A stretch of 64,000 nt of DNA from Nitrospirota bacterium (GCA_040753615.1 JBFMDO010000043.1:12607-76606); one strand, 5' to 3'. Positions 16,852-37,285 are shown, numbered from the stretch's first letter. The notes: a model not told the origin generated them from the sequence alone. A program made the numbers and translations.

Positions 16852-18042
16852 CTATTGCTTTGACGTATGACACATAGCGCAATAATTATCACCTGTTCCT
16901 GGCCAGCCCTTATAGTCCCACCTCATCATCTTAAAATATGGTGATGCATGCGCCTTGTGGCATGAAAGACACATCACCATATCTGTGTTTAAATTAACTG
17001 CATTACTTGACCCTGTCCATCCAGTAAGATTTGGTCTTGCAACTGGAACCAAAGAATCATATGTTCCCACACCGCCGACTGCATTAAATGCTTTAGCATA
17101 TTCTCCAGAGTTTGGTATAACCAAATCTGAAGGATGTCTAATCCAAGGGCTTCCAGATGTTGCATCATCTTCTATATGGAAATTCCTGTGGCAACCAGTA
17201 CAGTATGCTGTCATAGTATTTCCTAAAGCTGAAAAACCTCCACCAGATGTCTTTGTACCGCTATAACCAAGATATTCATTATGATCTATACTGCTCTCTT
17301 GTTCCCAGTCATCATCCTCGATTCCGGTTACACCAAGCCCAGCACCACTCTGGTGGCCGTCCAGAAAACGATACCATCCTTCAGAAGCGCTATCTATTAG
17401 AGGTCCTGTATCATCTTTGTGATGATAACCCTTTGGTGTGCCTGGGTCTACTCCAACCATATGGCATTTAGTGCAGCCCTGCCGGGAGGAGACAAAGCCA
17501 AAATAGGGAGGACCTGTAGCTCCGTGTATATTCTCATGACAGGAATTAACACCACCGCAACTCCCTACTGTATCTCCAGGGGCTACAGTTAAAGTGCTCT
17601 CAGGGTTTGATAAGGCAAAAATATTATGTCCTTTAGTGTCTTCTGTCTGTACCCAATAGAAATTGCCTGCAGCCAGTCCTTGGTAAGTAGTTCCCCCATC
17701 TGAAGATGCTCCGTATTGAGGTGGAGATGTATTGAACACTATAGGCGCTTTTGTAACATTATCCTGCCATGTTATCCCATCTGTCTTTGAATGACAGCCT
17801 AAACAGGATGACTTGAGTAGATTATCTTTCGGTGATGTGTCTGTTTCACCTGGACCAAGGATTATCACAGGCTGACCGCCCTGGCTGTTGTGCATTGTAT
17901 GACAGTTGCTGCACGAACCTGTAACCTTTGCCTCCAGAGGCAGAGCAAAGAGCAAAGAGCAAAAAGTAAAGAGCAAAAAGTAAAAAACATATAGTAAAAA
18001 GTTTACACGGAGACTTGAGTTTATTAAGTTTTTTGGGTTCAT
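16852..18042 (-). CDS. OmcS-family multiheme cytochrome (6 CxxCH + 1 CX5CH)
   Basis: CSNCHTMHNSQGG, SSCLGCH, GNFYWV, KGHNI, RHPSD, CLSCHKAHAS, terminal CAMCH are OmcS-like motifs; plus CGGVNSCH and an extra CTKCH. Confidence 0.85.
   Translation of the reverse strand: MNPKNLINSSLRVNFLLYVFYFLLFTFCSLLFALPLEAKVTGSCSNCHTMHNSQGGQPVIILGPGETDTSPKDNLLKSSCLGCHSKTDGITWQDNVTKAPIVFNTSPPQYGASSDGGTTYQGLAAGNFYWVQTEDTKGHNIFALSNPESTLTVAPGDTVGSCGGVNSCHENIHGATGPPYFGFVSSRQGCTKCHMVGVDPGTPKGYHHKDDTGPLIDSASEGWYRFLDGHQSGAGLGVTGIEDDDWEQESSIDHNEYLGYSGTKTSGGGFSALGNTMTAYCTGCHRNFHIEDDATSGSPWIRHPSDLVIPNSGEYAKAFNAVGGVGTYDSLVPVARPNLTGWTGSSNAVNLNTDMVMCLSCHKAHASPYFKMMRWDYKGWPGTGDNYCAMCHTSKQ
17944..17985. repeat. Heptamer tandem repeat inside signal-peptide codons
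   Basis: agcaaag agcaaag agcaaaa agtaaag agcaaaa agtaaaa. Confidence 0.8.
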
Positions 18043-18055
18043 TCAGTTTTCAACC

Positions 18056-18197
18056 ATTTGTCATTAATTTAGTCATTTGTCATTTGTCATTAAAAAATGA
18101 CTATTGACTGATGACAATTGACTTTTTCTATTAAATTTTATGCAATAGCCATGCCATATTAGTCATTAGTCATTTTATTGACCAGTGACTCTTGACT
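18056..18197. repeat. Heptamer inverted arrays (GTCATTT/TGACTAT) flanking a sigma54 promoter
   Basis: gtcattt x3 ... tgactat tgactga tgacaat tgact; second array at 18157-18197. Confidence 0.75.
18141..18156 (-). promoter_or_regulatory. Sigma54 promoter for the 18042-12272 sub-operon
   Basis: Minus strand TGGCAT-GGCTA-TTGCA. Confidence 0.75.
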
Positions 18198-18599
18198 TAT
18201 ATCTACTAACCCCATTGTCTTAAAGTCTTCATCAAAGGCAAAATAATCCCTTATCTTCAGCTCTTTCATTAAAACGAAACTCGTGCAGTCTGTAAAAGAA
18301 AACTCCTTATCCGGGTGCTTTTTAAAAAAATTCCATGCCTTAAGCTTTAGCGATTCATCAAGCCAGAATATCTCAATTATTTTACTCGTTAATATAAATT
18401 CTCCTGCCACAACTGCAACATTATGGCTTACATTAGACATAATACCTGTAACGCATTCATCAAAAATATAGTCTGTTATTATCATCAGCGAATTTTCTTT
18501 TTTAATCTTCTCTAATATTATTTTTGCCTTCAAATGATTCTCATCTTTTTTGTAAAAAAGGGCTACAAAAGCACTTGTGTCAACAAAGATTTTTCTCAT
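18159..18599 (-). CDS. vapC: VapC/PIN domain toxin
   Basis: IFVDTSAF, DY..DE, SFTDC.SF, FAFDEDF. Confidence 0.9.
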   Translation of the reverse strand: MRKIFVDTSAFVALFYKKDENHLKAKIILEKIKKENSLMIITDYIFDECVTGIMSNVSHNVAVVAGEFILTSKIIEIFWLDESLKLKAWNFFKKHPDKEFSFTDCTSFVLMKELKIRDYFAFDEDFKTMGLVDISQESLVNKMTND

Positions 18600-18618
18600 T
18601 TTTTATCAGGCTTAAACT

Positions 18619-18802
18619 TGTCCAAAATAAGCACCTAAGTCCTTGATATTGTTGATTCTTTAAAACGAGATTCTTCGCTCCGCTCAGACCTGTCCTGAGC
18701 CAGGAGATTCTTCGGCTTCGCCTCAGAATGACATAAGGCGAAGGAATGACAAACACCCAGCCTGTCATGCTGAACGAAGTGAAGCATCTCTTATTTTGGA
18801 CA
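18619..18802. mobile_element. MITE between antitoxin and toxin
   Basis: 13-bp TIR TGTCCAAAATAAG / CTTATTTTGGACA; internal GAGATTCTTCG..CTCAGAATGAC REP-like units; near-duplicated flanks atcaggcttaaactt / atcagacttgaactt. Confidence 0.78.
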
Positions 18803-19066
18803 CTACTGATCAGACTTGAACTTCTTTCTCCCATAAATATAAGCATCATGATTTTCTGACATATCAGTAACATCACTCTCAATAAAACCCACGGCTTTAA
18901 AAAATGGATCATTCTCCCAGTCAATTTCCCTATCTTCAACATATTTATCTACAGCCTCTCTTATAACTGCTGCAGCAGACTTAGACTCAAGTCGAGCCTT
19001 TTTTATTATCTTCTGATATGTAGACTCGGGAAAATATACCTGAGTCCTTTTTTCTGATACCTTCAT
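18803..19066 (-). CDS. CopG/RHH antitoxin
   Basis: KRTQVYF, S.AAVIREAVD.Y, D.SENHD.YIYG; upstream of PIN toxin. Confidence 0.85.
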   Translation of the reverse strand: MKVSEKRTQVYFPESTYQKIIKKARLESKSAAAVIREAVDKYVEDREIDWENDPFFKAVGFIESDVTDMSENHDAYIYGRKKFKSDQ

Positions 19067-19084
19067 ATCTATACCCCCATATTT

Positions 19085-19107
19085 ATGCTGTATACATTAT
19101 ACAGCAT
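19085..19107. promoter_or_regulatory. Palindromic operator of the TA operon
   Basis: ATGCTGTATA-cat-TATACAGCAT just upstream of the antitoxin start. Confidence 0.65.
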
Positions 19108-19213
19108 GAGGCTTACTTTTTTCAATGCCATCTGGTCTTAGTTCAGTCAAGCCTTATAGCAGTCTTAAGGATTTCCACCGAGTCCATTTGGGTGCCTTGT
19201 AGGAATATAGCGT

Positions 19214-19271
19214 AATTAACTACAAAATCAGCGGGGCGGTTTACCGCATCCGCTGGATTGGTTTGATATCT
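19214..19271 (+). other. Degenerate attC-like (59-be) site
   Basis: AATTAAC-5nt-AATCAGCGG...CCGCTGGATT-5nt-GATATCT; 58 bp, extrahelical G in the L' arm, GTT core mutated to GAT. Confidence 0.45.
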
Positions 19272-19638
19272 GGCTATTTTCAGTAAGATTGAGCCACATT
19301 TCTTGAAAAACATCGTCCAGTTTTTTGTCGATCGTCCATATTGGAACTCCTGTTAGTAATGCAGCAGCAAGTAAGTGGACATCTATGTAGCCTAATCCCT
19401 TTCCCAGTAGTCGGTTATTTTCTATAAATTTCATAACTTCATCATGTTCTGCTTGGATCGACATTGGAAGTGCTTGAAGTAAAGAAAGTATTTCATCTCT
19501 ATTATTAAGGTTCCCACAAGCCAATTCCCCAACGATAAATGGATGACAAACAACATCTCCATCATTCAATAGTTTCTCCAACGCGGTATTGCCTTCTCGC
19601 AAATGGGATACCCATACTGAAGTGTCAACAAGAACCAT
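19228..19638 (-). CDS. vapC: VapC/PIN domain toxin
   Basis: MVLVDTSVWV, HPFIVGELACG, GLGYIDVHLLA, WTIDKKL. Confidence 0.92.
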   Translation of the reverse strand: MVLVDTSVWVSHLREGNTALEKLLNDGDVVCHPFIVGELACGNLNNRDEILSLLQALPMSIQAEHDEVMKFIENNRLLGKGLGYIDVHLLAAALLTGVPIWTIDKKLDDVFQEMWLNLTENSQISNQSSGCGKPPR

Positions 19639-19639
19639 T

Positions 19640-20086: not shown

Positions 20087-20089
20087 TAT

Positions 20090-21442
20090 TTATTTCTTAT
20101 GACACTGGATGCAGAGCTGACGTTTTCTGTCAAAATGAAGCATAAATTCAGCCTTTGCTGAATGCATGCTATGGCAGGTATTGCATGTTATAGGCTTATC
20201 ATTTCTCGGGTCTTTAACATCCTGTCCGAGCGGGTGGGAGATTTTATGCTGTGTAGTATGGCATATTGCACATGTCTTTATTTCATCTGCCTTGAAATAA
20301 AGCGGATTATCAGAATGCAGGGGTATATGACACTCAAAGCATTTTCTGTCTTTAACAGGAATGCACCTGATAGACTTTAATGCCTTCTCCATAAGAAGGG
20401 CCTTTTTCTCTGTGCCTTCATGACATTTAATGCATACTGCTGTTTCTTTTGCTGTAAGGCTTTTCCTCTTTGATGCATGATAGCTATGGCACATCCCACA
20501 GCCGCCTTTTTCAGCAGTTCCGTGAACATCACCTTCTCTAAATTTTGTTTTATCCTTTTTATGACAGTTTAAGCATAAATCCCTGCCTGCTGTCTTTGTT
20601 GTAATCTTCTTATTCTGTATAATCGGATTGTGACATTGCTCACAATTTTTATCCAGAAATGCTGAATGTCCATAGGGTCCAAGTATCCCGCTAAAATTGG
20701 AAGCATGTCCGCCATGACATGCAGTGCAGTCAAGTTTCTCTGTAGCATAGGTTATAGAAACATTCTTTACCTTGCACCTGGGCAAATGACATTTTTTGCA
20801 TAATTTGTTTGGCGCATCAAGTATCTGATTTTCTTCTGAAGATGCGTGAGGCTCATGGCATGATGAACATTCTCCGGCAGTAAATGGGCGGTGCACATGA
20901 GATTTTTTCAATTGTTCTTTTAATGGTTCATGACAGTTCCAGCAAAGGTCTTTCTGGGATTTAACCAGTAGATATTTGTGTTCTCCGCTATGTGTATAAT
21001 GACAATCTGTACACATGCCTTTTTTGAGTGCATAATGTACAAATTCTTTTTTAAGCGACTTTTTAATTTCATTATGACATTTCAGGCAAAGCGAGTTAAT
21101 ATCCTCTTTGACCAGTCCTTTAATATTACTTGTATGCGGATTATGACAGGAAATGCATTCACCTTTTTTAAATGGAGAATGCACATAACTCCGCGATAGA
21201 CTCTCCTTAAGTTTTGCATGGCACTCATAACATAATGCAGGAACCTTTTTGGCAGGGTCATCCTTCTGTGCATATGCTAAGCCACTCCACGCAAAAACAA
21301 TAATCAGCATAGAGCATAGAACATGGAGCAATGCCCCTTTGTCCCACTTAGATAAGTAACCCCCCTCTTTTCCCCCCTTATCTAAGGGGGGACGAAGGGA
21401 GGTTATCTTTTGCTCTTTGCTCTTTGCTTGTTGTTTATTCAT
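20090..21442 (-). CDS. Periplasmic 16-heme cytochrome c (paired CXXCH repeat family)
   Basis: 16 CxxCH; HxP..G.CxxCHxPH repeats; start ATG 21442 overlaps the upstream stop. Confidence 0.92.
   Translation of the reverse strand: MNKQQAKSKEQKITSLRPPLDKGGKEGGYLSKWDKGALLHVLCSMLIIVFAWSGLAYAQKDDPAKKVPALCYECHAKLKESLSRSYVHSPFKKGECISCHNPHTSNIKGLVKEDINSLCLKCHNEIKKSLKKEFVHYALKKGMCTDCHYTHSGEHKYLLVKSQKDLCWNCHEPLKEQLKKSHVHRPFTAGECSSCHEPHASSEENQILDAPNKLCKKCHLPRCKVKNVSITYATEKLDCTACHGGHASNFSGILGPYGHSAFLDKNCEQCHNPIIQNKKITTKTAGRDLCLNCHKKDKTKFREGDVHGTAEKGGCGMCHSYHASKRKSLTAKETAVCIKCHEGTEKKALLMEKALKSIRCIPVKDRKCFECHIPLHSDNPLYFKADEIKTCAICHTTQHKISHPLGQDVKDPRNDKPITCNTCHSMHSAKAEFMLHFDRKRQLCIQCHKK
21350..21408. repeat. 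REP-like palindrome inserted in frame in the N-terminus
   Basis: taaccccc...CCCCCCTTA-tc-TAAGGGGGG...ggtta; translates as ITSLRPPLDKGGKEGGY. Confidence 0.7.
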
Positions 21443-23393
21443 GACAGACCTTGCAGTTTCCATTTGCAAACGGGTTATGTTTTATGTTTTTTAGTAACCC
21501 TGGCTTTTCTGTTACATGCGGCACATGACAGCCCAGGCATTGATTAATTTTAGACACAGGTTTTATGTGTACCTTTAACAATTTATCTGTATCCTTTGAA
21601 TGGCATTTAGTACATAACATCGGGTCTTTCAAATTCAATAAATATTTCAATTCTGCATAGTGGGACATATGACAACTGAGGCAATCTCCTGTCTCCATAT
21701 CTATATGTCCTTTCCTTACAGTAGTAATAACTATTTTCTCGTGGCATGATAGACATAGTTCTTTAGGCTTAGTTAAAAGTAGATGGCTGATCTTTGTCCC
21801 ATGAGGGCTATGACACCCTGTGCACTTTCCTTCCTCTGCAGGGAGATGTTTATTGTTACTGCGATTGAAATTATCCCTCAAGGTCTTATGACAATCATAG
21901 CATAATTCAAGCATTGATTTATGCGTGCTCGCTATATAATCACTTGCGTGCGGATTATGGCAGATCATGCATTCCCTCGCATTAAATGGTTTATGTAAAT
22001 CCTCTGCTTTAAGCTCAAGAAACATATTGCCGTGGCATTTCACACATAGTTGATTAGGTTGATTATTCAAAAGATCTTTATAGGCAGAAGCATGCGGCTT
22101 ATGACAGGAAACGCATTGTTTATTATTCACAGGAGTATGAATATATGTCTTAAAGAACTCTTTTTCTTCTTTTTTATGGCATGTATAGCATATCTCTGTA
22201 AGGGGTGTTTTCATCATATGGGGGTTATTGCTTCCATGAGATTCATGACATTTTTTACATTCAACATTTGAAAATGGAATATGCGTATGTGCTTCTTTCA
22301 ATTCTTTTTCAACATTAATATGACATGAAAAACATATCTTCTTTTCAGGAGCTTTCAGATAAAAAGTGTTTGGAGATGCATGTGGATTATGGCAGGCAGT
22401 GCAGCCTTTATCCTTTATTGGTGAATGTAAGTTGCCCACCTTTAAGACGGCTGCTTTATTTTTATGGCAGCTTATACAGAGATCATTCTTACCCAAAAGT
22501 GTAACCTTTGGATAATCTGTTGCATGCGGACTATGGCAGCTCTGGCATTTATCTTCATCAGTAGGCCGATGCCTGTAAGTCTCTTTAAATGCTTTTTCTT
22601 CCTTCTTATGGCAAGTATAGCAGAGTTTACCATCAGGTGCGATAGTAGCTATCGGGTTAGGATCATCAATTGATTTGTGGCATGAAGAGCACTGTCCTTT
22701 ATCAATTGGGGGATGTATTGATTCCCTCAGCAGTTTATCATTTGTTGAGCTGTGAGCAGTATGACATCCTGTACATTTTCCCTTCTGGACAGGATAACCT
22801 TTATGTGCCTTTTTAAACTTATTAGCCGTATAGTTATGGCATGTCTGGCATAGTTCCAATTCAGATTTTGTCAGATTATTTTCATGCAGCGACCCATGTG
22901 GTGCATGACAGGTAAGACATCCGTCTGAAAGAGGCTTGTGACGATTAGCGCGAATAAACGTATCCTGTTTATGACATATAAAGCATTGTTCATTTCCTAT
23001 CTTTTTCAGAAGAAATTTATTATCTGATGCATGTGGATTATGGCAGGGACGACACTTATTGTTTTTAAGGGCAGTATGTTCATATGTAATCTTGCCCATT
23101 TTTGCCGCCATATCTTTGTGGCAGATATAACAGAGCTTTTTATCTTCCCTTTCCTTAAGACTCAATATAGCAATCTTCCCGTGACGGAGATGGCATGCCT
23201 CACAGTCTCTGCTGACCATTGGGGAGTGAATATACTTTTTCTGATATTCGCTTAATTTTTCTTTGTGGCAGTCGAGACATGGTTTTGCTTCAAAACCCCT
23301 TTTTCGTATGTCAGGGGCACAGGTACAGAAGATGGTAAAGATAACTACAATAAAGATAACTTTAAAAACATTATTTATTATAGAGTTATTCAT
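21435..23393 (-). CDS. 26-heme cytochrome c, probable lipoprotein
   Basis: 26 CxxCH; N-terminal hydrophobic segment ending FCTCA; Lys-rich. Confidence 0.93.
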   Translation of the reverse strand: MNNSIINNVFKVIFIVVIFTIFCTCAPDIRKRGFEAKPCLDCHKEKLSEYQKKYIHSPMVSRDCEACHLRHGKIAILSLKEREDKKLCYICHKDMAAKMGKITYEHTALKNNKCRPCHNPHASDNKFLLKKIGNEQCFICHKQDTFIRANRHKPLSDGCLTCHAPHGSLHENNLTKSELELCQTCHNYTANKFKKAHKGYPVQKGKCTGCHTAHSSTNDKLLRESIHPPIDKGQCSSCHKSIDDPNPIATIAPDGKLCYTCHKKEEKAFKETYRHRPTDEDKCQSCHSPHATDYPKVTLLGKNDLCISCHKNKAAVLKVGNLHSPIKDKGCTACHNPHASPNTFYLKAPEKKICFSCHINVEKELKEAHTHIPFSNVECKKCHESHGSNNPHMMKTPLTEICYTCHKKEEKEFFKTYIHTPVNNKQCVSCHKPHASAYKDLLNNQPNQLCVKCHGNMFLELKAEDLHKPFNARECMICHNPHASDYIASTHKSMLELCYDCHKTLRDNFNRSNNKHLPAEEGKCTGCHSPHGTKISHLLLTKPKELCLSCHEKIVITTVRKGHIDMETGDCLSCHMSHYAELKYLLNLKDPMLCTKCHSKDTDKLLKVHIKPVSKINQCLGCHVPHVTEKPGLLKNIKHNPFANGNCKVCHE

Positions 23394-23455: not shown

Positions 23456-25081
23456 TCACTTCTGTAAACTTTCTTGAAGAGACTGTATTTTGTCTTCGTA
23501 AATTTTTATATGTGCCTCGTTTTTCAGTTGAGCAGTATATTTTTCTAATATGGAATTGAACTGTTCATTAAAGCACGCCTTGTAAACCGCATCTCTGACT
23601 TTACTGAATTCTTCTACTTCTTCTTCGGACTTTTCCTGCAGTTTGATTATTAGATATTGGGAATTAACTTTAATTATAGGGCTGATCTCCCCATAGGGTA
23701 GAGTTTTTACAATATCCCTCGCAGGCTCAGGTAGTCCGTCAATCGTAACCCATCCAACATTACCGCCTTTTGGGGCTGAAGGATCAGCAGATTTTTTCTT
23801 AGCCACCCATGAAAAATCAGCGCCACCCTTTAGCTCATCTAATATTTCCTGTGCCTCTTCCTGAGTCTTTGCTGTAACCTGCTGGATTTTGAAACGAACA
23901 GGCTTCATAAAGTCTTTTTGATGGCTTAAATAATAATCTTCCAATGCTTTATCTGTAATAGATATCTGGGGCACAATTATCCTGTTAATAAATGCCCTCT
24001 TCAGGAGCTGATCCTCATATCTGCGTATCATCTTCTTTAAGTCAGGCTGTTTTTCATAATGCCTTCTTAATGCCTCATGGTCTATTACCTTGCGTTCAAT
24101 CCAGTTATTCAGAATATCTTCCTTTGATTTTCGGGTGCGCGGAAAAATCATATTTGCAAACTCTCCAGCAGTAAGAGACGAGCCATTTACCTCAGCCAGT
24201 ATTCTTTCGTCCTTTAACCACTTTTTTAATTCTTCGGCTGAATTATTTATTTCAATAGCAGTGAAAAGTTCTCTATCAATCTTAATGTTTGTTTTTTCTC
24301 GGAGAAGATTAAGATATTCATCACCCCGCTCTTTTTCTTTTTGTTCCCTTATAGTCTTCTCTATTCTTCTCCTGACATTATTGAACTCCTCATCAGTCGC
24401 CTCTTTCCTGTCAATCAATTTCACTATGTAATATTTATTCAATATCTTCACAATATCGCTGAATTCACCTGAATTCAATTTGGAAATAGCTTCCTGTATA
24501 TAAGTTGAGATTGCGTTCCTTGTAAGTGTAACTTCTCCTCCCTCTTTTTTAGAAGGGTGGATTGAATATTCTTTTGCAAGTTCCTTAAAATCATCACCCT
24601 TTTTCAGCTTCTCTAATACTTCGCCCGCGATCTCCTCTGACTCCATCTCTATAATGCCCAAAGTAAATCGTTCGTAGTTTTTCTTATAATAGTCCTTAAT
24701 TTCCTTTTCTGTAACTGAGACCTTCTGAACAATCTCCTCATCATGAAGCCTGATAACCGATTCCCTTAAAATATATGTCTGAATAGCCTGCTGAATTTCA
24801 GGATATTTATCCATGCCGGAACGCCTTGCATCCTCAATGATTAACCTGTCATCTACCATCTTCCCTACATGCTCTGATAAATTCATTGCGCCTGCTGAAG
24901 AAAGGTCTTCCCTGCGGTGAGTAATTGTTAATGAATATTTTAGGTCTTCCTCAGTGAGGGGTTCTCCATTCACAACCGCTAATACTTTTTCTTTCTGTAG
25001 AAGTGAAGCACAACCACAGAAAACAGTAAACAGTAAACAGTAAATAGTAAACAGTAGAATGCTTGTAATTTTTGAATTCAT
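23456..25081 (-). CDS. Double parvulin (PpiC) peptidyl-prolyl isomerase lipoprotein, SurA/PrsA-like chaperone
   Basis: Lipobox FCGC; two A.VNG..LT domains; DF.ELAK.YS, GADFS.VAK..S.D.SA..GG.VGW. Confidence 0.9.
   Translation of the reverse strand: MNSKITSILLFTIYCLLFTVFCGCASLLQKEKVLAVVNGEPLTEEDLKYSLTITHRREDLSSAGAMNLSEHVGKMVDDRLIIEDARRSGMDKYPEIQQAIQTYILRESVIRLHDEEIVQKVSVTEKEIKDYYKKNYERFTLGIIEMESEEIAGEVLEKLKKGDDFKELAKEYSIHPSKKEGGEVTLTRNAISTYIQEAISKLNSGEFSDIVKILNKYYIVKLIDRKEATDEEFNNVRRRIEKTIREQKEKERGDEYLNLLREKTNIKIDRELFTAIEINNSAEELKKWLKDERILAEVNGSSLTAGEFANMIFPRTRKSKEDILNNWIERKVIDHEALRRHYEKQPDLKKMIRRYEDQLLKRAFINRIIVPQISITDKALEDYYLSHQKDFMKPVRFKIQQVTAKTQEEAQEILDELKGGADFSWVAKKKSADPSAPKGGNVGWVTIDGLPEPARDIVKTLPYGEISPIIKVNSQYLIIKLQEKSEEEVEEFSKVRDAVYKACFNEQFNSILEKYTAQLKNEAHIKIYEDKIQSLQESLQK
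25021..25058. repeat. Heptamer tandem repeat in signal-peptide codons
   Basis: cagtaaa x3, tagtaaa, cagtaga. Confidence 0.85.
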
Positions 25082-26250: not shown

Positions 26251-26268
26251 TTTGTTAATAGTTCTTTG

Positions 26269-26853: not shown

Positions 26854-26888
26854 TTAGTTACCCTGCCCTTATTATGTATTAGCATCTA

Positions 26889-27558: not shown

Positions 27559-29871
27559 CTACCAGAACCTGCAGTTTAAACTCCCGCTATAACTATATGT
27601 TTCTTCTTCTGTTTCATCCGTGGAGCATGAATAATTATATGCAAGCTGTAAATCCAGAAACTTTGTTATATTCCATATAGTATACCCGCTGAATGAATCC
27701 GTGGTTGTTGGTTCCGGCTCTGTTCTGCTATGCTGATAACTTAAATTAAATTTGATGGTTGGAAGGAAACGCCAGTCCAATAAAACTCCTTCAGAGGTGC
27801 TTATATCGCCGTCTGTGTCTGATATCTTATAATTACCGGATACATTCATAAAACTTCCCACCCTGTATGTAACTACAGCAGTTCCATCAATTGAAGTAGA
27901 TGTCTCATCTCCCGATGTCTCACTAAAACCATATGAGAAATTTGTGGATAGCCTGCTTGTAAGGCGGGCATCGAGTCTGCCTCTGATATATTTGGTATAA
28001 GACTCAGATTCTGCATCTTCGGATTCTGTATCTTCGGATTCTGCATCTGTTGAAAATGTCTCTGCCTGTGTATATCCAAGATCAACAATCAAATTTACAT
28101 CTTTATAAAGTTTTGCGCCTGTTGTGAATAAATACAGATTGCTTTCTGATTCTTTCTCTCCAAAACTGTAACTTGAAGTTTTAACTAATGAAAGCCTTGT
28201 ATCGAGGGTGGGTAGAGGAGATGAGCTAAAATCAAGAGAGTATGTATTAGAGCTGTAATCTGTTTCGTTACTATTGTCAAATGACTCGTTTCTCTGAAAC
28301 CGCGCTGATGTAGTAAGCAGCCTGTGAGTAAGCCATGTAGAGCCAACTCCATATGTCCTCGTCACATTGCTCTGCATATCTTCTTTACCTGTTATTGAAT
28401 TGCTGAATATATTCGAAAAAGCACCAGTCATTGAGTCTAATGCCGATTCAGGATTTTGGTCTGACCTGTTTAAAAAATAATTCAGTGAAAAGGTGAGCGT
28501 GTTAGAAGGTCTTACGGTAGTAGAGAAATTAATTCCTTGCGTAAAAAATGTGGAAATATCTGTAGTTTTGCCTGTTTCTGATATTTCATCTGTGCCATAA
28601 GCTTCAATCTCTGTTACTAAGACATCGTTTATTGTTGCATTATCAAGATTTATCACTCTAAAAAATAAGGCGTATTGAGGCGCAGCAAATTCTATCTCGT
28701 AACGATATATATTGTTCGAGATATCATATGCAGAGACAGTTATATTCTGAATGGTTATATCTGTCCATGTGCCTGATTGATTAAAGTCGCTGTAAGAGAC
28801 ACTCCAGCTGCTTGGATTTGTCAGGGTTGTATCTGATGTAATATCTTTATTCACATAAATATATAGGGTATCAACAGGCTCTTGAGATGAAAATAACTGT
28901 ATGCCTATATTATGATATGCGCTGCCATTCTGACCAATATTGATTGTGCCAGCAGGAGTATTATAATCATCGTCAGTCAGTGTAAATACAGGCGATAAGA
29001 CATCCACATTTGGCGTGATTGATGTGCCAGGTCCGCCATACATGCCAGACGAGGCTGACCGTTCAAAAGACACGCTTCCTGTTTCAGTTGAAAATTGTTC
29101 AACCTCACTATAAGAATAATTTCCCTGATAGCCTGCTACGATATTAACCTTATTATTCCATAGAGATTTGTTATAGCCAAGGTTATACGAACCATTATAG
29201 CTGTTATTAATAGTCTTTGTGATGGTACTCAGCGGTGTTTCATCTTCACTTCTTGTAAAGGTCAAATTATATGCCAGTTTTATATCTTCATAGAGCAAGT
29301 TATATGAAGAGCTCGCTGAATATTTTGTGGTAGCAGTGTCTGTCTCACTGACTGAAAGATAGTCATAGATTTCCTGCCTGTCAAACTGAAGGAATAAAGA
29401 CGGAAAATCCCGGGGCATTAAGTCAAAACGGGAATAATAGAACTCAGTTGTATCCCTCGTCTCATCTCTTAAACTCGCGGATGTCCATTGTTCTGTACGG
29501 CGATAGCCTGTGGAGATGCCATATACCGGATTCCTGAGAAAAATATCAAAAGCAGGTTCTGCTGTCCTTGAATAGGTAGATGTGGTATCCCCATTGGTAT
29601 CAGTAGATGCTGTATCCGTAAGACTCGTTCTTAAATATAACTGATAAGAAATTACAGGGGTGAGGGATTTATTAAAACTAAAATAATAATTCTGATAAAG
29701 GCTGTCAGAAGACCCTGTCTTTTCTCCTTCCTCGAATGTTTCTGTATTTGTGTAATTTATATTCAGCCATGCATCAGAACCATCAGCAAACGCAGAAGAA
29801 CAAAATAAGAAAGTCGCTATTGTTATGACTATAGATCTCCATGCTATAGACTTCATTAGTCCATTAGTCAC
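27559..29871 (-). CDS. Large outer-membrane beta-barrel with an inserted beta-sandwich domain
   Basis: Signal peptide (SAFA); alternating aromatic/polar strands; Ser/Thr/Asp-rich; C-terminal RFW. Confidence 0.8.
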   Translation of the reverse strand: MTNGLMKSIAWRSIVITIATFLFCSSAFADGSDAWLNINYTNTETFEEGEKTGSSDSLYQNYYFSFNKSLTPVISYQLYLRTSLTDTASTDTNGDTTSTYSRTAEPAFDIFLRNPVYGISTGYRRTEQWTSASLRDETRDTTEFYYSRFDLMPRDFPSLFLQFDRQEIYDYLSVSETDTATTKYSASSSYNLLYEDIKLAYNLTFTRSEDETPLSTITKTINNSYNGSYNLGYNKSLWNNKVNIVAGYQGNYSYSEVEQFSTETGSVSFERSASSGMYGGPGTSITPNVDVLSPVFTLTDDDYNTPAGTINIGQNGSAYHNIGIQLFSSQEPVDTLYIYVNKDITSDTTLTNPSSWSVSYSDFNQSGTWTDITIQNITVSAYDISNNIYRYEIEFAAPQYALFFRVINLDNATINDVLVTEIEAYGTDEISETGKTTDISTFFTQGINFSTTVRPSNTLTFSLNYFLNRSDQNPESALDSMTGAFSNIFSNSITGKEDMQSNVTRTYGVGSTWLTHRLLTTSARFQRNESFDNSNETDYSSNTYSLDFSSSPLPTLDTRLSLVKTSSYSFGEKESESNLYLFTTGAKLYKDVNLIVDLGYTQAETFSTDAESEDTESEDAESESYTKYIRGRLDARLTSRLSTNFSYGFSETSGDETSTSIDGTAVVTYRVGSFMNVSGNYKISDTDGDISTSEGVLLDWRFLPTIKFNLSYQHSRTEPEPTTTDSFSGYTIWNITKFLDLQLAYNYSCSTDETEEETYSYSGSLNCRFW

Positions 29872-29935: not shown

Positions 29936-31702
29936 CTAAAATGGAAACATGGCTATGCCGTAAGGCTTCCTGCCTACAGGCATAATCCGTTCTTCCTTCC
30001 TTGTATTTTTATCTATTTCTGATACAGTATCTGAACCTCTGTTGACCACATATATCTTCCTGCCTTCTGGGTCCAGAATCAATGACCTCGGGGAGTCTCC
30101 TGCTGGTATGACGCCAATCAGAGGAGCCATTGTCATTGTTCCTGTCAAAGAACTAAAAGCCTCTGAGAAAGGCCTGATAATAATTATCTCATCAGCGCTG
30201 TCCTTCAGGAGATAAATCCTGTCCAGATCAGGGTCAGTGACAATTCCTGTGATAGAAGTTCCGACATTAGTGATAGAACTTACTGCACCGGTTTTATTGC
30301 CTTTAATAATCTGCAGGATATCTATAACAGAAAGATTGTCAAAATTATAATTTGCCACATAAACCTTTCCCCGCTGATAATCTACTGTAAGTGCGATAGG
30401 GTTCCATTCAACATTTACATTAATTATTGCATCAGGACTGCTTACTGATGAGGCATCCATTCTTAAGATAGAGACCTCTTTTGAATTTTTATTCACAACA
30501 TATACATTAAAGAATTTCTCGCGATAACTTCTCAAAATGCTAATATCTTCAATGCTGAGAAATCTTGATCCAAAAATGATATCTACTGGCGGATCGACTG
30601 CCACTGCAACAGGGCCATCTCCTACGCTTATCATTTGTATTTCCTGATAGGTCGAGGCATCAATAACAGATATTGTATCAGAGGCGTAATTTGCCACAAA
30701 AATGAATTCTTTCCCACGCGATGTGCTGACCACAGCAATAGCCTCAGGTTCTCTGCCAAATCTTATTGGTATCTCAACCTCAACCTTGTTAGTATGGGGA
30801 TCTATTACAGAGACACTGTTAGAGCCTGAATTTGCCACATAAATTCTCGGACGTTCTCTATTCCAGTTTGCAGCAATGCCCCTCGGTTTTTTCCCCACCA
30901 TTATAGTTGCCGCTACATCGCCTGTCTGCCGATTAAGCACAGACACATTATTTGATTCTTCATTCGTAACATAGATAAGCAAAGAGCTTAACTCGGGGAC
31001 CTCACCTTTAATATCGAATACAGGACTGAATAGATATCCGTCAACAATAGATGCGTCAGGTCTCCAGCTTAAAAACAGCGATGCGCTCTGATTTTTATTT
31101 ATTATTATATCTATATCTATTTCTATTCCTTCAGGCGGGAGCGCTAAATTTGATATCCTGTCTTCCCGCTTAATTAATGCCTCTTGTATTATTAGTTGCA
31201 GTTTTTTGTATCTTCCTTCAGGGAGAGACTTTTCGCCGAGAAGCATCTGTCTGCCTGCAACTGAAAAGGAGTTTATATTCATTTGGGCGCTCATTACCCC
31301 CCTGTATGTTCCATCTTCTGCCATAATATTAATAGCTAAAACATCAAATGTAATATTCAGGGAAGCCTTTTCATGTCCTTTAAGGAATATTGCAATCTGC
31401 CCCTTGTCTGATTCTGTCTCTTCATATTTCTGAATCGAGGCACAACCTGTTAAAAGAAAAAAGAAGCAGAGGGCAAAAACCCAGGAACTGAGGACTAATA
31501 ACTTAGAGCTATTGATACATATAAAATAATGTCTTATGTTTTTGTTATATCCTATTGTATCCTTGTCATTCCTGCGGAAGCAGGAATCCAGGGAAAAGAC
31601 TGGATTCCGCATCAAGTGCGGAATGACGATAGAGGACATTTTTATACAGGAGTCAATAATAACCACGAGAGGGTTTCGATAAATCTGTCTATTGTATAAC
31701 AT
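29936..31702 (-). CDS. YVTN/YncE beta-propeller lipoprotein with a MITE in its leader
   Basis: Lipobox LTGC; IYVTNEESNNVSV, IYVANSGSNSVSVID repeats; N-terminal DUF4382-like region (LPEGRY). Confidence 0.88.
   Translation of the reverse strand: MLYNRQIYRNPLVVIIDSCIKMSSIVIPHLMRNPVFSLDSCFRRNDKDTIGYNKNIRHYFICINSSKLLVLSSWVFALCFFFLLTGCASIQKYEETESDKGQIAIFLKGHEKASLNITFDVLAINIMAEDGTYRGVMSAQMNINSFSVAGRQMLLGEKSLPEGRYKKLQLIIQEALIKREDRISNLALPPEGIEIDIDIIINKNQSASLFLSWRPDASIVDGYLFSPVFDIKGEVPELSSLLIYVTNEESNNVSVLNRQTGDVAATIMVGKKPRGIAANWNRERPRIYVANSGSNSVSVIDPHTNKVEVEIPIRFGREPEAIAVVSTSRGKEFIFVANYASDTISVIDASTYQEIQMISVGDGPVAVAVDPPVDIIFGSRFLSIEDISILRSYREKFFNVYVVNKNSKEVSILRMDASSVSSPDAIINVNVEWNPIALTVDYQRGKVYVANYNFDNLSVIDILQIIKGNKTGAVSSITNVGTSITGIVTDPDLDRIYLLKDSADEIIIIRPFSEAFSSLTGTMTMAPLIGVIPAGDSPRSLILDPEGRKIYVVNRGSDTVSEIDKNTRKEERIMPVGRKPYGIAMFPF
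31510..31658. mobile_element. 147-bp (+TA) MITE, in-frame insertion
   Basis: Imperfect TIRs TATTGA..AAAAT(A)ATGTC; TA target duplication; internal GTCATTCCTGCG..GGAATCCA/TGGATTCC..GGAATGAC REP doublet. Confidence 0.8.
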
Positions 31703-31711
31703 GCTATCTCC

Positions 31712-33157
31712 TCACTTTTTTATAATAACAAAATGGACTCTTCTATTTTTCTGCATACATTCTTTTGTTCTTTCTCTGCATACAGATTTTTCTTCACCAT
31801 AGCTTATAGTCTCTATCCTTTTTGATGGCACGCCAAGCGAAATAAGATAATCCTTTGCCGCATTTGCCCTTTTCTCTCCAAGTGCGAGATTATATTCATT
31901 TGTATCCATTTCATCGCAATGCCCTTCGATCAAAAGTCCTGCTGATGTATTCTTACGCAGCCATGAGGCAATCTCCTTTAAAATAGGCCTTGCATCTGCT
32001 TTTATATCATATTTATCAGTATCAAAATATATATCCTTAAAAATAACTTTTTCTATATGTTCAGGTTCCTTTTCTTCTGCCTCTGTCTCTATCTTCGCAA
32101 CCTGTTCCTCTGTTATTTTTTCTTCTATTACAACTTCTTGAGCAACAATTTCTTCTTCCACTGGTTGAAACACCTGTATACGGTCATTAAATGTATCCGC
32201 TACAAAAATCCTGCCTTGTGAGTCCACAGCTATATCTCTCGGGTACTGGAACCATCCCTCTCCCCAGCCAAGACCACCGAATTCAAAAAGATATTCGCCA
32301 TTCTTATCATAAGCAGAAACCGTATGTCTCATGTAATCTACAACATATATTCTGCCGTTTCGGTTATCCACAGCGACTGCCTGTGGTCGGCTTAACTTAC
32401 TTTTACCTCCACCTTTCTGCCCAAACTTAAAGAGGAAGTTTCTATTTTCGTCATAAACATAGATATGGCTAACTTCCTCACTGACAAGATATATCCTTCC
32501 TGCTTTATCCAGTGTTACATAATTAACCTGAACCTTCCTGTCTTCTTCTTCAGGTGAAAGAATATCTATAAACTGTCCGTCATTATTCAGTATCACAATT
32601 CCCGGAAAAGAGTAACTGGCAACATAAATATCCCCTTTTTTATCCACAACTAACCTATATGGAATGAAAGACGCAGATCCCTCAAAGCCGTGAAAATAAA
32701 TGTCCCTCGTCCATTTAAGGCAGGCATTGTAAACCGAGAGCCTGTGTCTCGGATTTTCGTTCGTTCCAGCCTGAGCAATGTAAAAATTGCCACTCTTATC
32801 AATTGTTAAGCCCTGTGGCATATGAACTCCATCTGCTTTATCAAGGGTAAAAATCGGGAAAAAGTCTGAAGTATAAATAACAACCCTCGCATCGCTGTCA
32901 ATGATATAAATTTCTTTCATACCATCTTCAGTAAAAACAAAAGAAGGGAATAAAGTCTTCCCCCCTTCTTCATCCTCGGTTATGACATCAATATAGGTTA
33001 CCGGTACCCCCTCTATAAAGGCATTCAATTTATTTGGGAAAGACAGCATAGAGCATAGAGCTAACAGCAGAGAGCACAAGATTATCCATACCTCTCTCCA
33101 ACACTTTAAAAATTCAAATCTTTCGATCTTCTTTGTTTCAGATAGTTTACTTCTCAT
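31712..33157 (-). CDS. NHL beta-propeller fused to an OmpA/Pal peptidoglycan-binding domain
   Basis: NHL repeats (FQYPRDIAVDSQGRIFVADTFNDRIQVF); IYFDTDK, IEGHCD, YNLALGEKRA, SYGEE, NRRV. Confidence 0.9.
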   Translation of the reverse strand: MRSKLSETKKIERFEFLKCWREVWIILCSLLLALCSMLSFPNKLNAFIEGVPVTYIDVITEDEEGGKTLFPSFVFTEDGMKEIYIIDSDARVVIYTSDFFPIFTLDKADGVHMPQGLTIDKSGNFYIAQAGTNENPRHRLSVYNACLKWTRDIYFHGFEGSASFIPYRLVVDKKGDIYVASYSFPGIVILNNDGQFIDILSPEEEDRKVQVNYVTLDKAGRIYLVSEEVSHIYVYDENRNFLFKFGQKGGGKSKLSRPQAVAVDNRNGRIYVVDYMRHTVSAYDKNGEYLFEFGGLGWGEGWFQYPRDIAVDSQGRIFVADTFNDRIQVFQPVEEEIVAQEVVIEEKITEEQVAKIETEAEEKEPEHIEKVIFKDIYFDTDKYDIKADARPILKEIASWLRKNTSAGLLIEGHCDEMDTNEYNLALGEKRANAAKDYLISLGVPSKRIETISYGEEKSVCRERTKECMQKNRRVHFVIIKK

Positions 33158-33719: not shown

Positions 33720-34709
33720 CTACCTCTGTCTATTGTGGCATCCAAGACAGCCATATGTTACACCTGAACCAGCCACTTGTGTAGCATTATAATCCCACCT
33801 TAAAATGTCGTTATATTGTGCACCATGAGACCTGTGGCATGACAAGCATGTAACTCTTGCATTTGCAGCAGTTTCTGTTTCAGCGTTAAATCCTAATGGA
33901 TGGTTTCTCATTGCATCGGCATCGGCTGTCCATTCAGTAGCAAAATTAACGTATATATCCCACGTAGTAGGTATTGCAACATCAGTGGGATGTCTTACAA
34001 ATGGGCTTGCCGCACCTGTGTCATCGCTTCCATGGAAATTACTGTGGCATTTACCGCATAGTTCGCTTATGCTTGGCCCGCCAACTGTTGCGCTGTAGAC
34101 ATTATGGGCAGTTCCTACACCAGAGATTAGTAATTCCTCATAATCAGCTGTCCCGGTACCGAGAACACCATTAGCGCCAACATAAAGGATACGATAGACC
34201 GAAGGGGCATGATGTCCTCCCTTGATAGCAGCCATGTCATCAAGATCTGTCTGATTACCGTGGCAACCATTTGTCCCGGCACAACCCAATCCATTGGTAG
34301 CTCCTGTATACCAAGCATTTTCTGCTGCATCAAACCCAGCGGGTGAAGCAGTAGCGCCTAAATCATGATCGGTATCACTGTTATTATCTGCGGTGTTAGC
34401 AGTTGGCTGGAAGAATCCGCCTGCAAGGCAGTTGTTATTAGTAAAACCACCTGCAACAGAAGTTCTCACATATGGATAACCACCAACAAGGGGGTCAGTA
34501 CCTGTAGTTGTATGACATCCAAGACAGTTGTTTACCAGCAACGCACTATATGGCCCGGCAGTACCCCAGGAACTTAAGGTCCCACCGCCCTGGCTATAAT
34601 GCATGGTATGGCAATTTGCACATGGGCCACTTACAGCTGCATCAGCAAATCCATAGACTAAAAAGAGCGAGAGAAAAGCTACAAGTCCTAAAATTAATAT
34701 CTTTTTCAT
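33720..34709 (-). CDS. OmcS-family hexaheme cytochrome, probable major filament subunit (5 CxxCH + CX5CH)
   Basis: CANCHTMH, CLGCH, CAGTNGCH, ISELCGKCH, RHPTD, CLSCHRSH, CLGCH; strong RBS AAGGAGGTGA; own promoter and terminator. Confidence 0.85.
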   Translation of the reverse strand: MKKILILGLVAFLSLFLVYGFADAAVSGPCANCHTMHYSQGGGTLSSWGTAGPYSALLVNNCLGCHTTTGTDPLVGGYPYVRTSVAGGFTNNNCLAGGFFQPTANTADNNSDTDHDLGATASPAGFDAAENAWYTGATNGLGCAGTNGCHGNQTDLDDMAAIKGGHHAPSVYRILYVGANGVLGTGTADYEELLISGVGTAHNVYSATVGGPSISELCGKCHSNFHGSDDTGAASPFVRHPTDVAIPTTWDIYVNFATEWTADADAMRNHPLGFNAETETAANARVTCLSCHRSHGAQYNDILRWDYNATQVAGSGVTYGCLGCHNRQR

Positions 34710-35073: not shown

Positions 35074-36159
35074 TTATTGATCCCCTTTTCTTGTATGACA
35101 TGTGAGGCAGCCTACGCGTGTGCCATTACGGACATACATGTTGTCATAGTCCCATCTGAGTATATCAGGATAGGGGCTTGCATGCGCCCTGTGGCATGAA
35201 AGACACATTATTATGCTCTGTGCATTAACCTCTTTTTCACCCCCTGTTGGTTCATAATAAGCAACAGGAGCCTCAAGGCTGTACTTGACATAACTTTCAT
35301 ACTCAGAACCTGCAAAACCAATATGCACAGCATCAAATGCAAGGTCAGAAGGGTGCCTTAGCCAGACAGTAGTATACGCCTGACCAACTTCCTTACTCCC
35401 GCCAAGATTTGGATGGGGATGAAATTTTGCATGGCATTGACCACAGAGATAACTTATAGTATCCATACTGTCATGAGTCATATCGCCTTTATACCCATTA
35501 TGATTATCATCAGTAGCAAGGTATTCCCAATCTTTATGTTCCCTGCCTTTTATTCCATAAAGGAAGCGGTAACTTCTACCGACTGTTAAACCATCTATCA
35601 CGCTGTCATCTTCGTGATGTGCTCCATGAATAGCCTTATACGGGTCTTCTATAGCCCTGTTGCCATGACACCCCCATGTCCCGGCGCAGGCAAGCTGTTT
35701 GTAAGATGGCCAATCTTCTGTCCCTATGCCTCCATGAATTATGACACCACCGATAAATCCAGGCGGAATATTCATGGGGGGATTTTCCTGAATAGATACA
35801 TCAAGCACATTATGTCCTTTTGCATATTGAGGATTATAACCGTCTGCAACATAATAGAAATTACCTGCAGCAAGGTCTCCGTTTCCCATGTGGTGGAGAA
35901 CCTGAGGAATCCGTGCCTTTCCAATGGTCATTATATTCTGAGCGCCAGCAGGATCCTGACCATGACAGCCGAGACATCCACCCTGTGTCAGAATAGGAAA
36001 TGGTCCTGTGCGTTCTCCATAGGTCATTTCTTCACCTTCGTAACTGTCATGCATTGTATGGCAATCTTTACATTTCCCCTTAACGCGGGCATCAACCAAT
36101 CCACAATATAAGACGAGTATCAGTATCATGACAGAACTTGTTATAAATGCCTTTTTCAT
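35074..36159 (-). CDS. OmcS-family hexaheme cytochrome (5 CxxCH + CX5CH)
   Basis: CKDCHTMH, CLGCH, AAGNFYYV, KGHNV, CAGTWGCH, CGQCH, RHPSD, CLSCHRAHAS, CLTCH; likely start ATG 36159. Confidence 0.85.
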   Translation of the reverse strand: MKKAFITSSVMILILVLYCGLVDARVKGKCKDCHTMHDSYEGEEMTYGERTGPFPILTQGGCLGCHGQDPAGAQNIMTIGKARIPQVLHHMGNGDLAAGNFYYVADGYNPQYAKGHNVLDVSIQENPPMNIPPGFIGGVIIHGGIGTEDWPSYKQLACAGTWGCHGNRAIEDPYKAIHGAHHEDDSVIDGLTVGRSYRFLYGIKGREHKDWEYLATDDNHNGYKGDMTHDSMDTISYLCGQCHAKFHPHPNLGGSKEVGQAYTTVWLRHPSDLAFDAVHIGFAGSEYESYVKYSLEAPVAYYEPTGGEKEVNAQSIIMCLSCHRAHASPYPDILRWDYDNMYVRNGTRVGCLTCHTRKGDQ

Positions 36160-36174
36160 CTCTCTAATCCCTTT

Positions 36175-36239
36175 GTCATTAGTCAATTTAATGACCAGTG
36201 ACTTCTTTCACTGACCAGTGACTGTTGACTATTGACTAT
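36175..36239. repeat. Heptamer inverted array
   Basis: gtcatta gtcaatt ... tgaccag tgact ... tgaccag tgactgt tgactat tgactat. Confidence 0.75.
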
Positions 36240-36241
36240 TT

Positions 36242-37285
36242 TTATTTTCCTGTATGGCATATAAAACAACCGCCCTTTCCTTCCTCCCCGGTAATAACAG
36301 CATCATAATCCCATCTCAAAATTGAGTCATAATGACCTGAGTGTGCTACATGGCATGAAAGGCATGTTACAATGTCACTGCCTATTTTTACCTCATCCGT
36401 TGACGACAGAGGGATTTTTTCCCTTCCCACAGGCGCATCAGGGTTATAAATCCTCACATCAGGTCTATCAGGCGGAGGCGGAACTTCAGGGTTATACTCT
36501 GCATACTCGCCATTTTTTGGCAGGACAATGCCTGTTGGATGTCTGAACCATGGGCTTCCTTTGCCTGTATTTTCATTGCCATGAAAATCGCCATGGCAGC
36601 TTGCGCAGAGTATATCTATCGTTGGACAATACTCATTATGCTTTTCTTGGGTTTTATTCTGATTCCATTCATCATCCTCAAGTCCCGAAACACCTTTCAC
36701 TTTATTGGTATTCCCTAAGAACCTGTAACTTCTGGCTGTTGTGCTGCCATCTATTGGGTCATCCTCTGCATGGTGGGAGCCTAAGATTGCTTCAAATGGG
36801 TCTTCTATGTTTCTGTTGCCATGACAGCCATTGGCGCCTGCGCATGCCAATTGTTTCCTATGGTTATAACCTATCTCTGACGGGTCAACTGCCCTGCTAT
36901 ATCCCGGGGGACTGAATAAAAATTTCTCATCCATATACGTAACACCATCCACATTATGTCCCTTTCTGTCGCCAAAATCCCTCGCCACATAATAGAAGTT
37001 TCCGCCTGCCAATGGTTTTAGCGGCAAAACAGTATTCCTAACCACAGGAACTCTAACCCCTGCAAGCATTTTTATAGTATCCCTGTCATTATTTGAATGG
37101 CAGTTCACACAGATGGCATTTTCCAGCACATACTCAAGCGGTTCTCCTATTTCTGCTTCCTTCATCATCCCGGGATAAACAGTATGGCAGACATCACAGT
37201 CATCCGAAACTATTGCACCGCGGACTTCAGAAATTGATAAAAAGAGGATAGTCAATAAGATAATACTTATAGCTAAGTTCTTCAT
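36242..37285 (-). CDS. OmcS-family hexaheme cytochrome lacking the CHTMH His
   Basis: CDVCHTVY, CVNCH, AGGNFYYV, RKGHNV, CAGANGCH, CASCH, RHPTG, CLSCHVAH, CFICH. Confidence 0.82.
   Translation of the reverse strand: MKNLAISIILLTILFLSISEVRGAIVSDDCDVCHTVYPGMMKEAEIGEPLEYVLENAICVNCHSNNDRDTIKMLAGVRVPVVRNTVLPLKPLAGGNFYYVARDFGDRKGHNVDGVTYMDEKFLFSPPGYSRAVDPSEIGYNHRKQLACAGANGCHGNRNIEDPFEAILGSHHAEDDPIDGSTTARSYRFLGNTNKVKGVSGLEDDEWNQNKTQEKHNEYCPTIDILCASCHGDFHGNENTGKGSPWFRHPTGIVLPKNGEYAEYNPEVPPPPDRPDVRIYNPDAPVGREKIPLSSTDEVKIGSDIVTCLSCHVAHSGHYDSILRWDYDAVITGEEGKGGCFICHTGK

Follow-up and report, generated by a model that had tools for sequence, protein, structure and literature searches.

The multihaem cytochrome OmcS of Geobacter sulfurreducens stacks its haems in the order of their motifs, and its 12 axial ligands are all histidines, one of which is supplied by the neighbouring subunit (PMC6584659). 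The operon of companion genes found with it, 'osc', has been summarised in PMC13194489. An OmcS homologue of Desulfurivibrio alkaliphilus, DA_402, has been assigned to a 'sister clade of OmcS' (Nature 2025, PMC12545173); it is predicted to have seven motifs of the form 'CX2-5CH', of which six can be aligned with OmcS (Extended Data Fig. 5 legend, PMC12545173), its filament was predicted with AlphaFold2 and it is upregulated more than 100-fold on Fe(III) oxide (PMC12545173). In syntrophic sulfate reducers (HotSeep-1, Seep-SRB), OmcS-like proteins are described as conserved, extracellular and highly expressed, and filaments have been proposed (Murali 2023, PMC10553843). As to the motif itself, CX3-4CH motifs are stated to bind haem covalently (Shi 2014, PMC4245776, citing Stevens 2004) and 'atypical CX3-5CH' motifs are mentioned for Dester_0351 and Theam_0871, together with atypical motifs in OmcZ (PMC4245776). 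Here, 64,000 nucleotides of DNA from Nitrospirota bacterium, a groundwater organism (GCA_040753615.1 JBFMDO010000043.1:12607-76606; this whole stretch is hereafter the window), were analysed with respect to four OmcS-like genes, A to D, each of which has a widened CX5CH motif where OmcS has its third haem.

Four OmcS-like genes and their widened motif

The four open reading frames (ORFs), and with them their motifs, all lie on the minus strand, within the range that an earlier note on this DNA had given. Paralog A (16852..18042, 396 amino acids (aa)) has six CxxCH motifs plus CGGVNSCH (17536..17559, aa 162-169) and is assigned to a heptahaem type, type II, in which the haem-3 site has a variable spacer and which is defined by a seventh haem motif, in A the extra CxxCH CTKCH (17461..17475, aa 190-194). 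The other three belong to a hexahaem type, type I, with five CxxCH plus one CX5CH: B (33720..34709, 329 aa; CAGTNGCH at 34260..34283, aa 143-150), C (35074..36186, 370 aa from a TTG start; CAGTWGCH at 35665..35688, aa 167-174) and D (36242..37285, 347 aa; CAGANGCH at 36821..36844, aa 148-155). In databases C is held as a protein of 361 aa that begins at Met10, and entry P0001 is 100% identical to it. A terminator-like hairpin is located directly downstream of B (33701-33682).

When A, B, C and D are aligned, both Cys and the His of the motif fall in shared, invariant columns, followed by the equally invariant elements G.HH (A, 17419-17430; B, 34209-34220; C, 35614-35625, where it reads GAHH; D, 36770-36781), YR.L and HN.Y. 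The earlier note had described precisely this arrangement, a CX5CH at one position in all four paralogs trailed by the three elements, and had warned that counting CxxCH would turn three of them into pentahaems, which is what happens with B, C and D at five CxxCH each, A having six. The YR.L element is present as had been claimed, but it is not specific to the subfamily since OmcS has AYRIL.

All four N-termini are hydrophobic and signal-like when read by eye from the translations. No whole-protein model for A to D exists in Pfam or NCBIfam; the Pfam family Paired_CXXCH_1 (PF09699, cut-off 20.6 bits) is matched by A (38.5 bits), B (36.7) and C (46.8), in which the match spans only the two C-terminal motifs, while D scores just below (19.5). 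Sources that give a family name use 'cytochrome c3 family' or 'hypothetical', and the nearest ESM Atlas clusters are all Paired_CXXCH_1 cytochromes, with no structure in the Atlas. No RNA sequencing run is listed as a match, and the sole DNA run listed is a groundwater metagenome, from which the window may derive.

The CX5CH motif occurs in this family far more often than by chance. In the host genome (2.29 Mb, 78 contigs, estimated completeness 100%), 18 ORFs have at least two CxxCH and the five CX5CH found within them all belong to the OmcS-like family, the background being 18 CX5CH per 1.04 million six-frame residues. All of the 120 database sequences nearest to C have the pattern C-[A/S]-G-x-[W/Y]-G-C-H, with both Cys and the His kept. 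Elsewhere in the genome, contig C69 encodes two more multihaem ORFs with CX3CH (CLKACH and CAASCH), so that atypical spacing in this host is not restricted to the OmcS-like family.

Position of the motif relative to OmcS

The earlier note had located the widened motif at the third OmcS haem, and this location is borne out by the homology searches. Taken alone, A matches OmcS (PDB 6EF8 (6NEF)) with a phmmer E-value of 2.6e-7 across residues 42-376 and C with 1.9e-4, and the family profiles align with 6EF8 over ca. 300 positions at E-values of 4e-24 (type II, A3) and 3.5e-25 (type I, A2). The six haem motifs are ordered as in OmcS, motifs 1, 2, 4 and 5 as CxxCH, motif 3 as CX5CH and motif 6 at the C-terminal end, and relative to this set A has one CxxCH more. 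The type II profile matches both the first Cys and the CH of its motif to those of the OmcS CSSCH and has an insertion in the loop; the type I profile aligns ungapped, its first Cys falling on the first Cys of OmcS and its C-H-G on the P-H-G of CSSCHDPHG. By either alignment the widened motif corresponds to the OmcS haem-3 site. Since the OmcS stack follows motif order, haem 3 is an interior one and its loss would break the chain.

A fixed spacer in type I and a labile one in type II

When 1.84 billion cluster representatives were searched with a profile, 1,462 matched at E <=0.001 and 524 at E <=1e-30. Among the best 150 representatives, 122 have at least one CX5CH, while the remaining 28 have either CX3-4CH or at least six CxxCH. 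Alignment A2, which comprises B, C, D and 108 of these 150 representatives chosen by a motif-requiring pattern (111 rows), does not vary at either Cys, at two of the Gly, at the His or at the Gly next to it, and type I can thus be described by five CxxCH plus C-[A/S]-G-x-x-G-C-H-G, as in B, C and D. Larger type I and type II sets were gathered by a pattern that demands CxxCHT[MIVL][HY], CxxCH, GH[ND], CX2-7CH and HH, which B itself escapes, having DHD in place of GHN. Across the 191 unique sequences of type I the composition of the site is L-T-C-[A165 S16 G8]-G190-x-[Y77 N49 ...]-G191-C-H-G191-x-[R113 H42]; the Gly at spacer position 5 and that after the His occur in 191/191 and the Gly at position 2 in 190/191, none of them being demanded by the selecting pattern.

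Type II is represented in the host genome by A and by one paralog on contig C16, and its extra CxxCH lies 20 to 30 residues past the site. The first Cys, the second Cys and the His were invariant in 27/27 type II sequences with a spacer of 2, 3, 4 or 5 residues, and in 99 unique sequences the site is CX2CH in 28, CX3CH in 23, CX4CH in 35, CX5CH in 11 and CX6CH in 2. The second type II gene of the host itself has CGTNSCH, a CX4CH. What the earlier note had taken for one conserved CX5CH motif across four paralogs therefore has two histories, B, C and D belonging to a clade in which the spacer is fixed and A to one in which it varies; the interpretation given in that note is largely right, yet it merges two clades.

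Profile-profile alignment (hhalign) sets the type I motif on the variable type II motif with a probability of 100 and an E-value of 4e-107, and the extra type II CxxCH, which is not found in OmcS either, stands opposite a gap in the type I profile. A MAFFT run of 151 sequences that split the type I motif over two type II motifs was set aside for hhalign and HMMER. An origin of type I by a deletion fusing two type II motifs was also considered and was rejected, the profile-profile alignment being against it.

The graded series from CX2 to CX6, in which C..CH is kept, fits a simple loop insertion in a standard site with two thioethers. In type I there are 12 conserved Cys, equal to six pairs, and no others, so that the first Cys of the motif has only the second Cys of the same motif as a partner. 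The ungapped type I alignment would suit a different chemistry, in which the haem is bound unusually, either through a single thioether from the second Cys (XXXCH-like), the first Cys having another function, or with a His of the HH element in place of the motif His as proximal ligand, because it sets the type I C-H-G on the P-H-G of OmcS, whose His is conserved and does not belong to a motif, and because the new HH is invariant 16 residues downstream. Both hhalign and the type II profile, however, place Cys on Cys and CH on CH, the type II spacers of 2 to 6 residues retain C..CH throughout, and the first Cys is kept in all type I and in 98/99 type II sequences, suggesting that it is needed. 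Binding of this unusual kind is considered improbable.

Some members of the family depart further from these descriptions. The sixth of the 6 family paralogs in the host genome (L008 1486-2649, contig C16) is of type I and has, in addition to CAGENGCH, a CX6CH (CGGGEVSCH) after HNEY; related type I genes elsewhere have a canonical CxxCH near that place, which makes a different seventh motif. Two representatives, P0200 and P0219, have apparent CX10CH and CX12CH motifs at the type I site, and a third, P0122 (841 aa, 17 CxxCH and two CX4CH), looks like a two-copy fusion.

Phylogeny and distribution

All trees were computed with FastTree and carry Shimodaira-Hasegawa (SH)-like support. In an unrooted tree of 99 type II rows and 27/191 type I sequences (25 chosen at random plus C and D), type I stands on one side of a branch with a support of 100. 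The spacer, treated as a label on this tree, requires at least 24 changes, and at least six origins of CX5CH are forced within type II. The nearest relative of A has CX5CH (L089), the second-nearest CX4CH (L091).

For rooting, OmcS-proper was collected as 71 loci by a degenerate DNA pattern for CEGCHTMHN, nine residues taken from the PDB alignment; the sources are Geobacter, Geobacteraceae, Anaeromyxobacter and many metagenome-assembled genomes (MAGs) of Nitrospirae. Their 71 ORFs mostly have six CxxCH and none has CX3-7CH, haem 3 being mostly CxSCHDPHG where the pattern caught the site. Five Desulfuromonadales genomes scanned for OmcS-proper yielded type I and II genes only. In the rooted tree, built from 22/58 OmcS-proper, 24/191 type I and 58/99 type II rows, the window family (82 rows) forms a clade apart from OmcS-proper with a support of 100, in line with the distinct subfamily that the earlier note had proposed, and splits into type I (87) and type II (92). 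Canonical spacing is thus the outgroup state. CX5CH has the look of a derived motif that became fixed a single time, on the stem of type I, and arose repeatedly in type II.

The family ranges over Nitrospirota, Thermodesulfobacteriota, Aquificota, Pseudomonadota, Campylobacterota, Spirochaetota and other MAGs. It is also carried by cultured organisms: Desulfurivibrio sp. D14AmB has type I genes with five CxxCH + CAGTNGCH, six + CAGTNGCH and six + CAGSGGCH, as well as type II genes with CX3 and CX4, and Pelovirga terrestris M08fum has a gene with six CxxCH + CAGAAGCH. D. alkaliphilus itself is not among the best 80 loci in three locus scans.

Conserved histidines

In 56 OmcS-proper ORFs exactly 12 His are conserved at >=98%, namely the six of the motifs and those of the N-terminal FH (the His of A-F-H-S-G-G, 100% in these ORFs), TMH, GHN, DPH, (R/V)HP and RAH. 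Their number matches that of the reported OmcS ligands, from which we infer that they are the same twelve. Types I and II keep TMH (97.9% and 100%, respectively, under a pattern that allowed only H/Y at this place), GHN, RHP and AH, but a conserved His is missing both ahead of the first Cys and where OmcS has DPH. New in both types are HH (100% in both, HH being part of the selecting pattern), which lies downstream of CX5CH and does not exist in OmcS, HNxY (96% in type I and 99% in type II) and xFH after motif 4 (98% and 94%). Two of the six distal ligands thus appear to be replaced relative to OmcS. The absence of the N-terminal FH had been pointed out in the earlier note, together with a rewiring of the axial His, and as far as comparative conservation can indicate such a rewiring, the loss of FH and DPH and the gain of HH, HNxY and xFH agree with it.

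Conserved His amount to 6 + 8 in type I and 7 + 8 in type II. Eight non-motif His for six haems in type I mean that the His count cannot exclude a five-haem protein, and more His are conserved than six bis-His haems need. This surplus bears on the possibility that the site holds no haem, the two Cys of CX5C being free or paired with each other in a disulfide. B, C and D would in that case be genuine pentahaems whose haem chain has a gap. Against such a gap, the His beside the second Cys is invariant along with both Cys, the same columns are a canonical CX2CH in type II relatives and in OmcS, the interior position of haem 3 means that conduction would be interrupted, and strong conservation extends to the remaining five motifs and to the assembly cluster. 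A haem-free site is regarded as very improbable, and haem binding at CX5CH as very likely on these comparisons.

Paralog D differs from the other three at aa 33-37, where it has CHTVY while nearly all type I sequences have CHTMH; A, B and C retain the His. D could be a non-polymerising or chain-end variant.

Haem lyase

The window also carries ResB (2526-3971) and CcsA/CcsB (3964-5049), both on the plus strand and 12 kb from paralog A, which together constitute the sole System II cytochrome c haem lyase of the genome (Pfam ResB 327 bits, Cytochrom_C_asm 165 bits; TIGR03144 268 bits for a cut-off of 187.6). The host genome has one ResB ORF and two PF01578 genes. The second PF01578 gene is a 278-aa ORF on contig C31 that adjoins a 424-aa ORF; judged by eye from their sequences, the former looks HemX-like and the latter looks like a glutamyl-tRNA reductase (hemA-like). 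As to System I, neither CcmE nor a CcmF-like match was found in the host genome. With a single lyase in the genome, it is this enzyme that would have to attach haem at CX5CH if those sites carry haem. In the two cultured carriers examined, ResB is located 6 to 8 kb from OmcS-like genes (G006:C34 and G007:C2), Pelovirga having two copies of ResB and Desulfurivibrio sp. D14AmB one. Among 33 long related loci, ResB/CcsA was found by tblastn beside family genes in only two.

Gene neighbourhood

Between A and B, and on the same minus strand, lies a set of genes that were identified with Pfam and NCBIfam, with one exception. They encode two large multihaem cytochromes (20090-23393), a peptidyl-prolyl isomerase (PPIase, 23456-25081), three lipoproteins (25186-27485), a 770-aa protein (27559-29871), a beta-propeller (29936-31702) and an NHL/OmpA protein (31712-33157). 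One of the lipoproteins is weakly similar to the 5T10/5T11 chains ('Uncharacterized protein', E 9e-5) and to 9H80 PelC (E 0.025). The 770-aa protein is the exception, for which searches of Pfam, NCBIfam and PDB gave no meaningful match; it is rich in Ser, Thr, Asn and Tyr, ends in RFW and is a putative outer-membrane barrel. Just upstream of D, a 404-aa multihaem cytochrome with paired CXXCH repeats is encoded on the minus strand (37353..38567).

The same companions recur in related loci. Of 80 loci retrieved, 33 are 15 kb or longer; in these 33, which include Nitrospirota, Aquificota, Desulfobulbaceae and Desulfofervidaceae, the three lipoproteins were found in 19 loci, the barrel-like protein and the PPIase in 17 each, the large cytochromes in 16, the NHL/OmpA protein in 15 and the propeller in 11. 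Beside OmcS-proper, in the 71 loci taken as 8-kb segments, the propeller was found 27 times, NHL 31 times, the barrel-like protein 10 times and the lipoproteins 4 to 9 times. At the level of its published summary, the 'osc' operon is fitted by the companion cluster of the window.

The OmcS-like proteins may bind their six or seven haems and yet act as monomeric or porin-docked surface cytochromes, not as self-polymerising nanowires, and the lack of filament evidence for the host organism, the missing CHTMH His of D, the absence of the OmcS N-terminal FH and the presence of several paralogs in one genome, which could mean diverse partners in place of one polymer, all point in that direction. 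On the other hand, the CHTMH His is nearly universal in both types within the H/Y choice of the pattern, the module is homologous to genes beside true OmcS, an AlphaFold2 filament has been published for the relative DA_402 (PMC12545173) and OmcS-like filaments have been proposed in syntrophic consortia (PMC10553843). A role without filaments is seen as a serious possibility, though one with somewhat less than an even chance.

Several other genes of the window, all on the minus strand, lie in or around this cluster. A 476-aa cytochrome with eight CxxCH and no full-length family match is encoded at 12272-13702, and homologues of it occur near OmcS-like genes in 28/80 related loci. PIN-domain (VapC-like) genes are found within and beside the cluster (18159-19638, 38727-39197 and 10880-11705) and, together with a HepT/nucleotidyltransferase pair upstream, are probably toxin-antitoxin modules. 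Adjoining the cluster is a gene for a 1148-aa parallel beta-helix (NosD-like) protein with OmpL47-type and PxKF domains (39520-42966). Finally, the stretch 47141-56198, downstream of the cluster, encodes a PilS-like kinase, a sigma-54 response regulator, a T2SS-F/PilC-like protein, a PilT-like ATPase and two tandem 601-aa MshE-type ATPases.

Proposed role

The account that is favoured, and which taken as a whole is thought probably correct, is that A to D are secreted multihaem c-type cytochromes of a sister clade of Geobacter-type OmcS. In this account the CX5CH would be a covalent haem site, with a thioether from each Cys, the His as proximal ligand and the three extra residues as a glycine-rich bulge, so that B, C and D would hold six haems and A seven. 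Attachment would take place in the periplasm, with ResB/CcsA, the one System II lyase, as the enzyme, and the distal ligands would be rearranged with respect to OmcS as described above. Export and mounting outside the cell would most likely be the task of the adjacent osc-like module (PPIase, three ring-type lipoproteins, putative barrel, beta-propeller and NHL), and the proteins may serve extracellular electron transfer, possibly as filaments. Non-canonical haem attachment, as the earlier note had proposed, is a strong inference from homology and conservation. What the sequences show is the homology itself, the position of the motif, its conservation, the clade structure, the lyase inventory and the synteny; the occupation of the site by haem, the parts played by the ligands, the route of export and any formation of filaments are proposals.

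A number of points weigh against this account. Chemical or structural evidence of haem on any CX5CH was not found in the literature searched, and the His count, as said, would also suit five haems. The ungapped alignment suggests that the motif His of type I could derive from a distal ligand and not from the proximal one. Conservation at positions that belong to the selecting pattern is partly circular, and the support of 87 and 92 for the split into two types comes from FastTree alone. The CHTMH His, which in OmcS ligates haem 5 of the neighbouring subunit, is missing from D. In Wolinella, unusual haem motifs need dedicated lyases, and no dedicated second lyase exists in the host genome, which has one ResB and one true CcsA.

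One position with spacers from CX2 to CX6, together with the single System II lyase of this genome, would allow a clean test of the spacing tolerance of the lyase, and the lost and gained ligand His are concrete targets for structural work on the rewiring of a haem chain; cultured carriers of CX5CH genes (D14AmB and M08fum) make such experiments feasible. Annotation by CxxCH count calls most of a large clade (1,462 representatives, E <=0.001) pentahaem, and these members are most likely six-haem relatives of OmcS. Ecologically they extend from groundwater Nitrospirota to sulfur and iron cyclers (Desulfurivibrio) and Desulfofervidaceae. More tentatively, the Gly-rich loop may represent a distinct mode of holding haem, combined with a re-dealt set of His and a tolerant System II lyase, in a second widespread class of nanowires in Nitrospirota, Thermodesulfobacteriota, Aquificota and others. 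The type II loop, repeatedly lengthened and shortened between CX2 and CX6, would then be a natural series of haem-motif stretch, and the spacer possibly tunes the potential or the exposure of a haem in the middle of the chain. This broader view is considered less likely than not.

Comparison with known systems

Neither the family nor the notion of a stretched motif is new, and in this respect the earlier note overstated the novelty of the locus. CX5CH by name was not found in the literature searched, where only 'CX2-5CH' (PMC12545173) and 'CX3-5CH' (PMC4245776) appear in a haem context, and the accessible portions of PMC10954620, PMC13712944 and PMC12977616 make no mention of motif spacing, nor does PMC9743091 provide a list of ligands. 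Nor did the literature searched yield the invariance of the Gly-rich CX5CH, the CX2-6 lability, the loss and gain of His or the single-lyase context.

With respect to DA_402, Desulfurivibrio genomes carry type I genes with CAGTNGCH, the motif of B, and type II genes, and these Desulfurivibrio relatives suggest that DA_402 belongs to the same clade. Unlike the present analysis, the accessible text of PMC12545173 describes no CX5CH invariance, spacer variability or His changes. The proteins of the syntrophic sulfate reducers (Murali 2023) are comparable in that Desulfofervidaceae genomes carry type I and II genes, a likeness by name and lineage, and haem-motif spacing is unmentioned in the accessible text of PMC10553843.

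The atypical CXnCH motifs (CX3CH, CX4CH and CX3-15CH) resemble the present one in that a longer spacer separates the two Cys ahead of the His. In contrast to them, n is here fixed at 5 throughout a clade, at one haem position and in a Gly-rich context, with no dedicated lyase, and in the sister clade n varies from 2 to 6 at the same site.

Finally, the likeness to G. sulfurreducens OmcS consists of homology over ca. 300 residues, the same order of motifs 1, 2, 4, 5 and 6, the common elements CHTMH, GHN, YR.L, RHP and CLSCHRAH, and homologous companion genes nearby. The window paralogs are shorter (329-396 aa compared with ca. 430 aa for OmcS). In OmcS-proper, haem 3 is held by CxSCHDPHG, a CX2CH, and CX3-7CH occurs in 0/71 of its ORFs; it has the FH and DPH His and no HH or HNxY.

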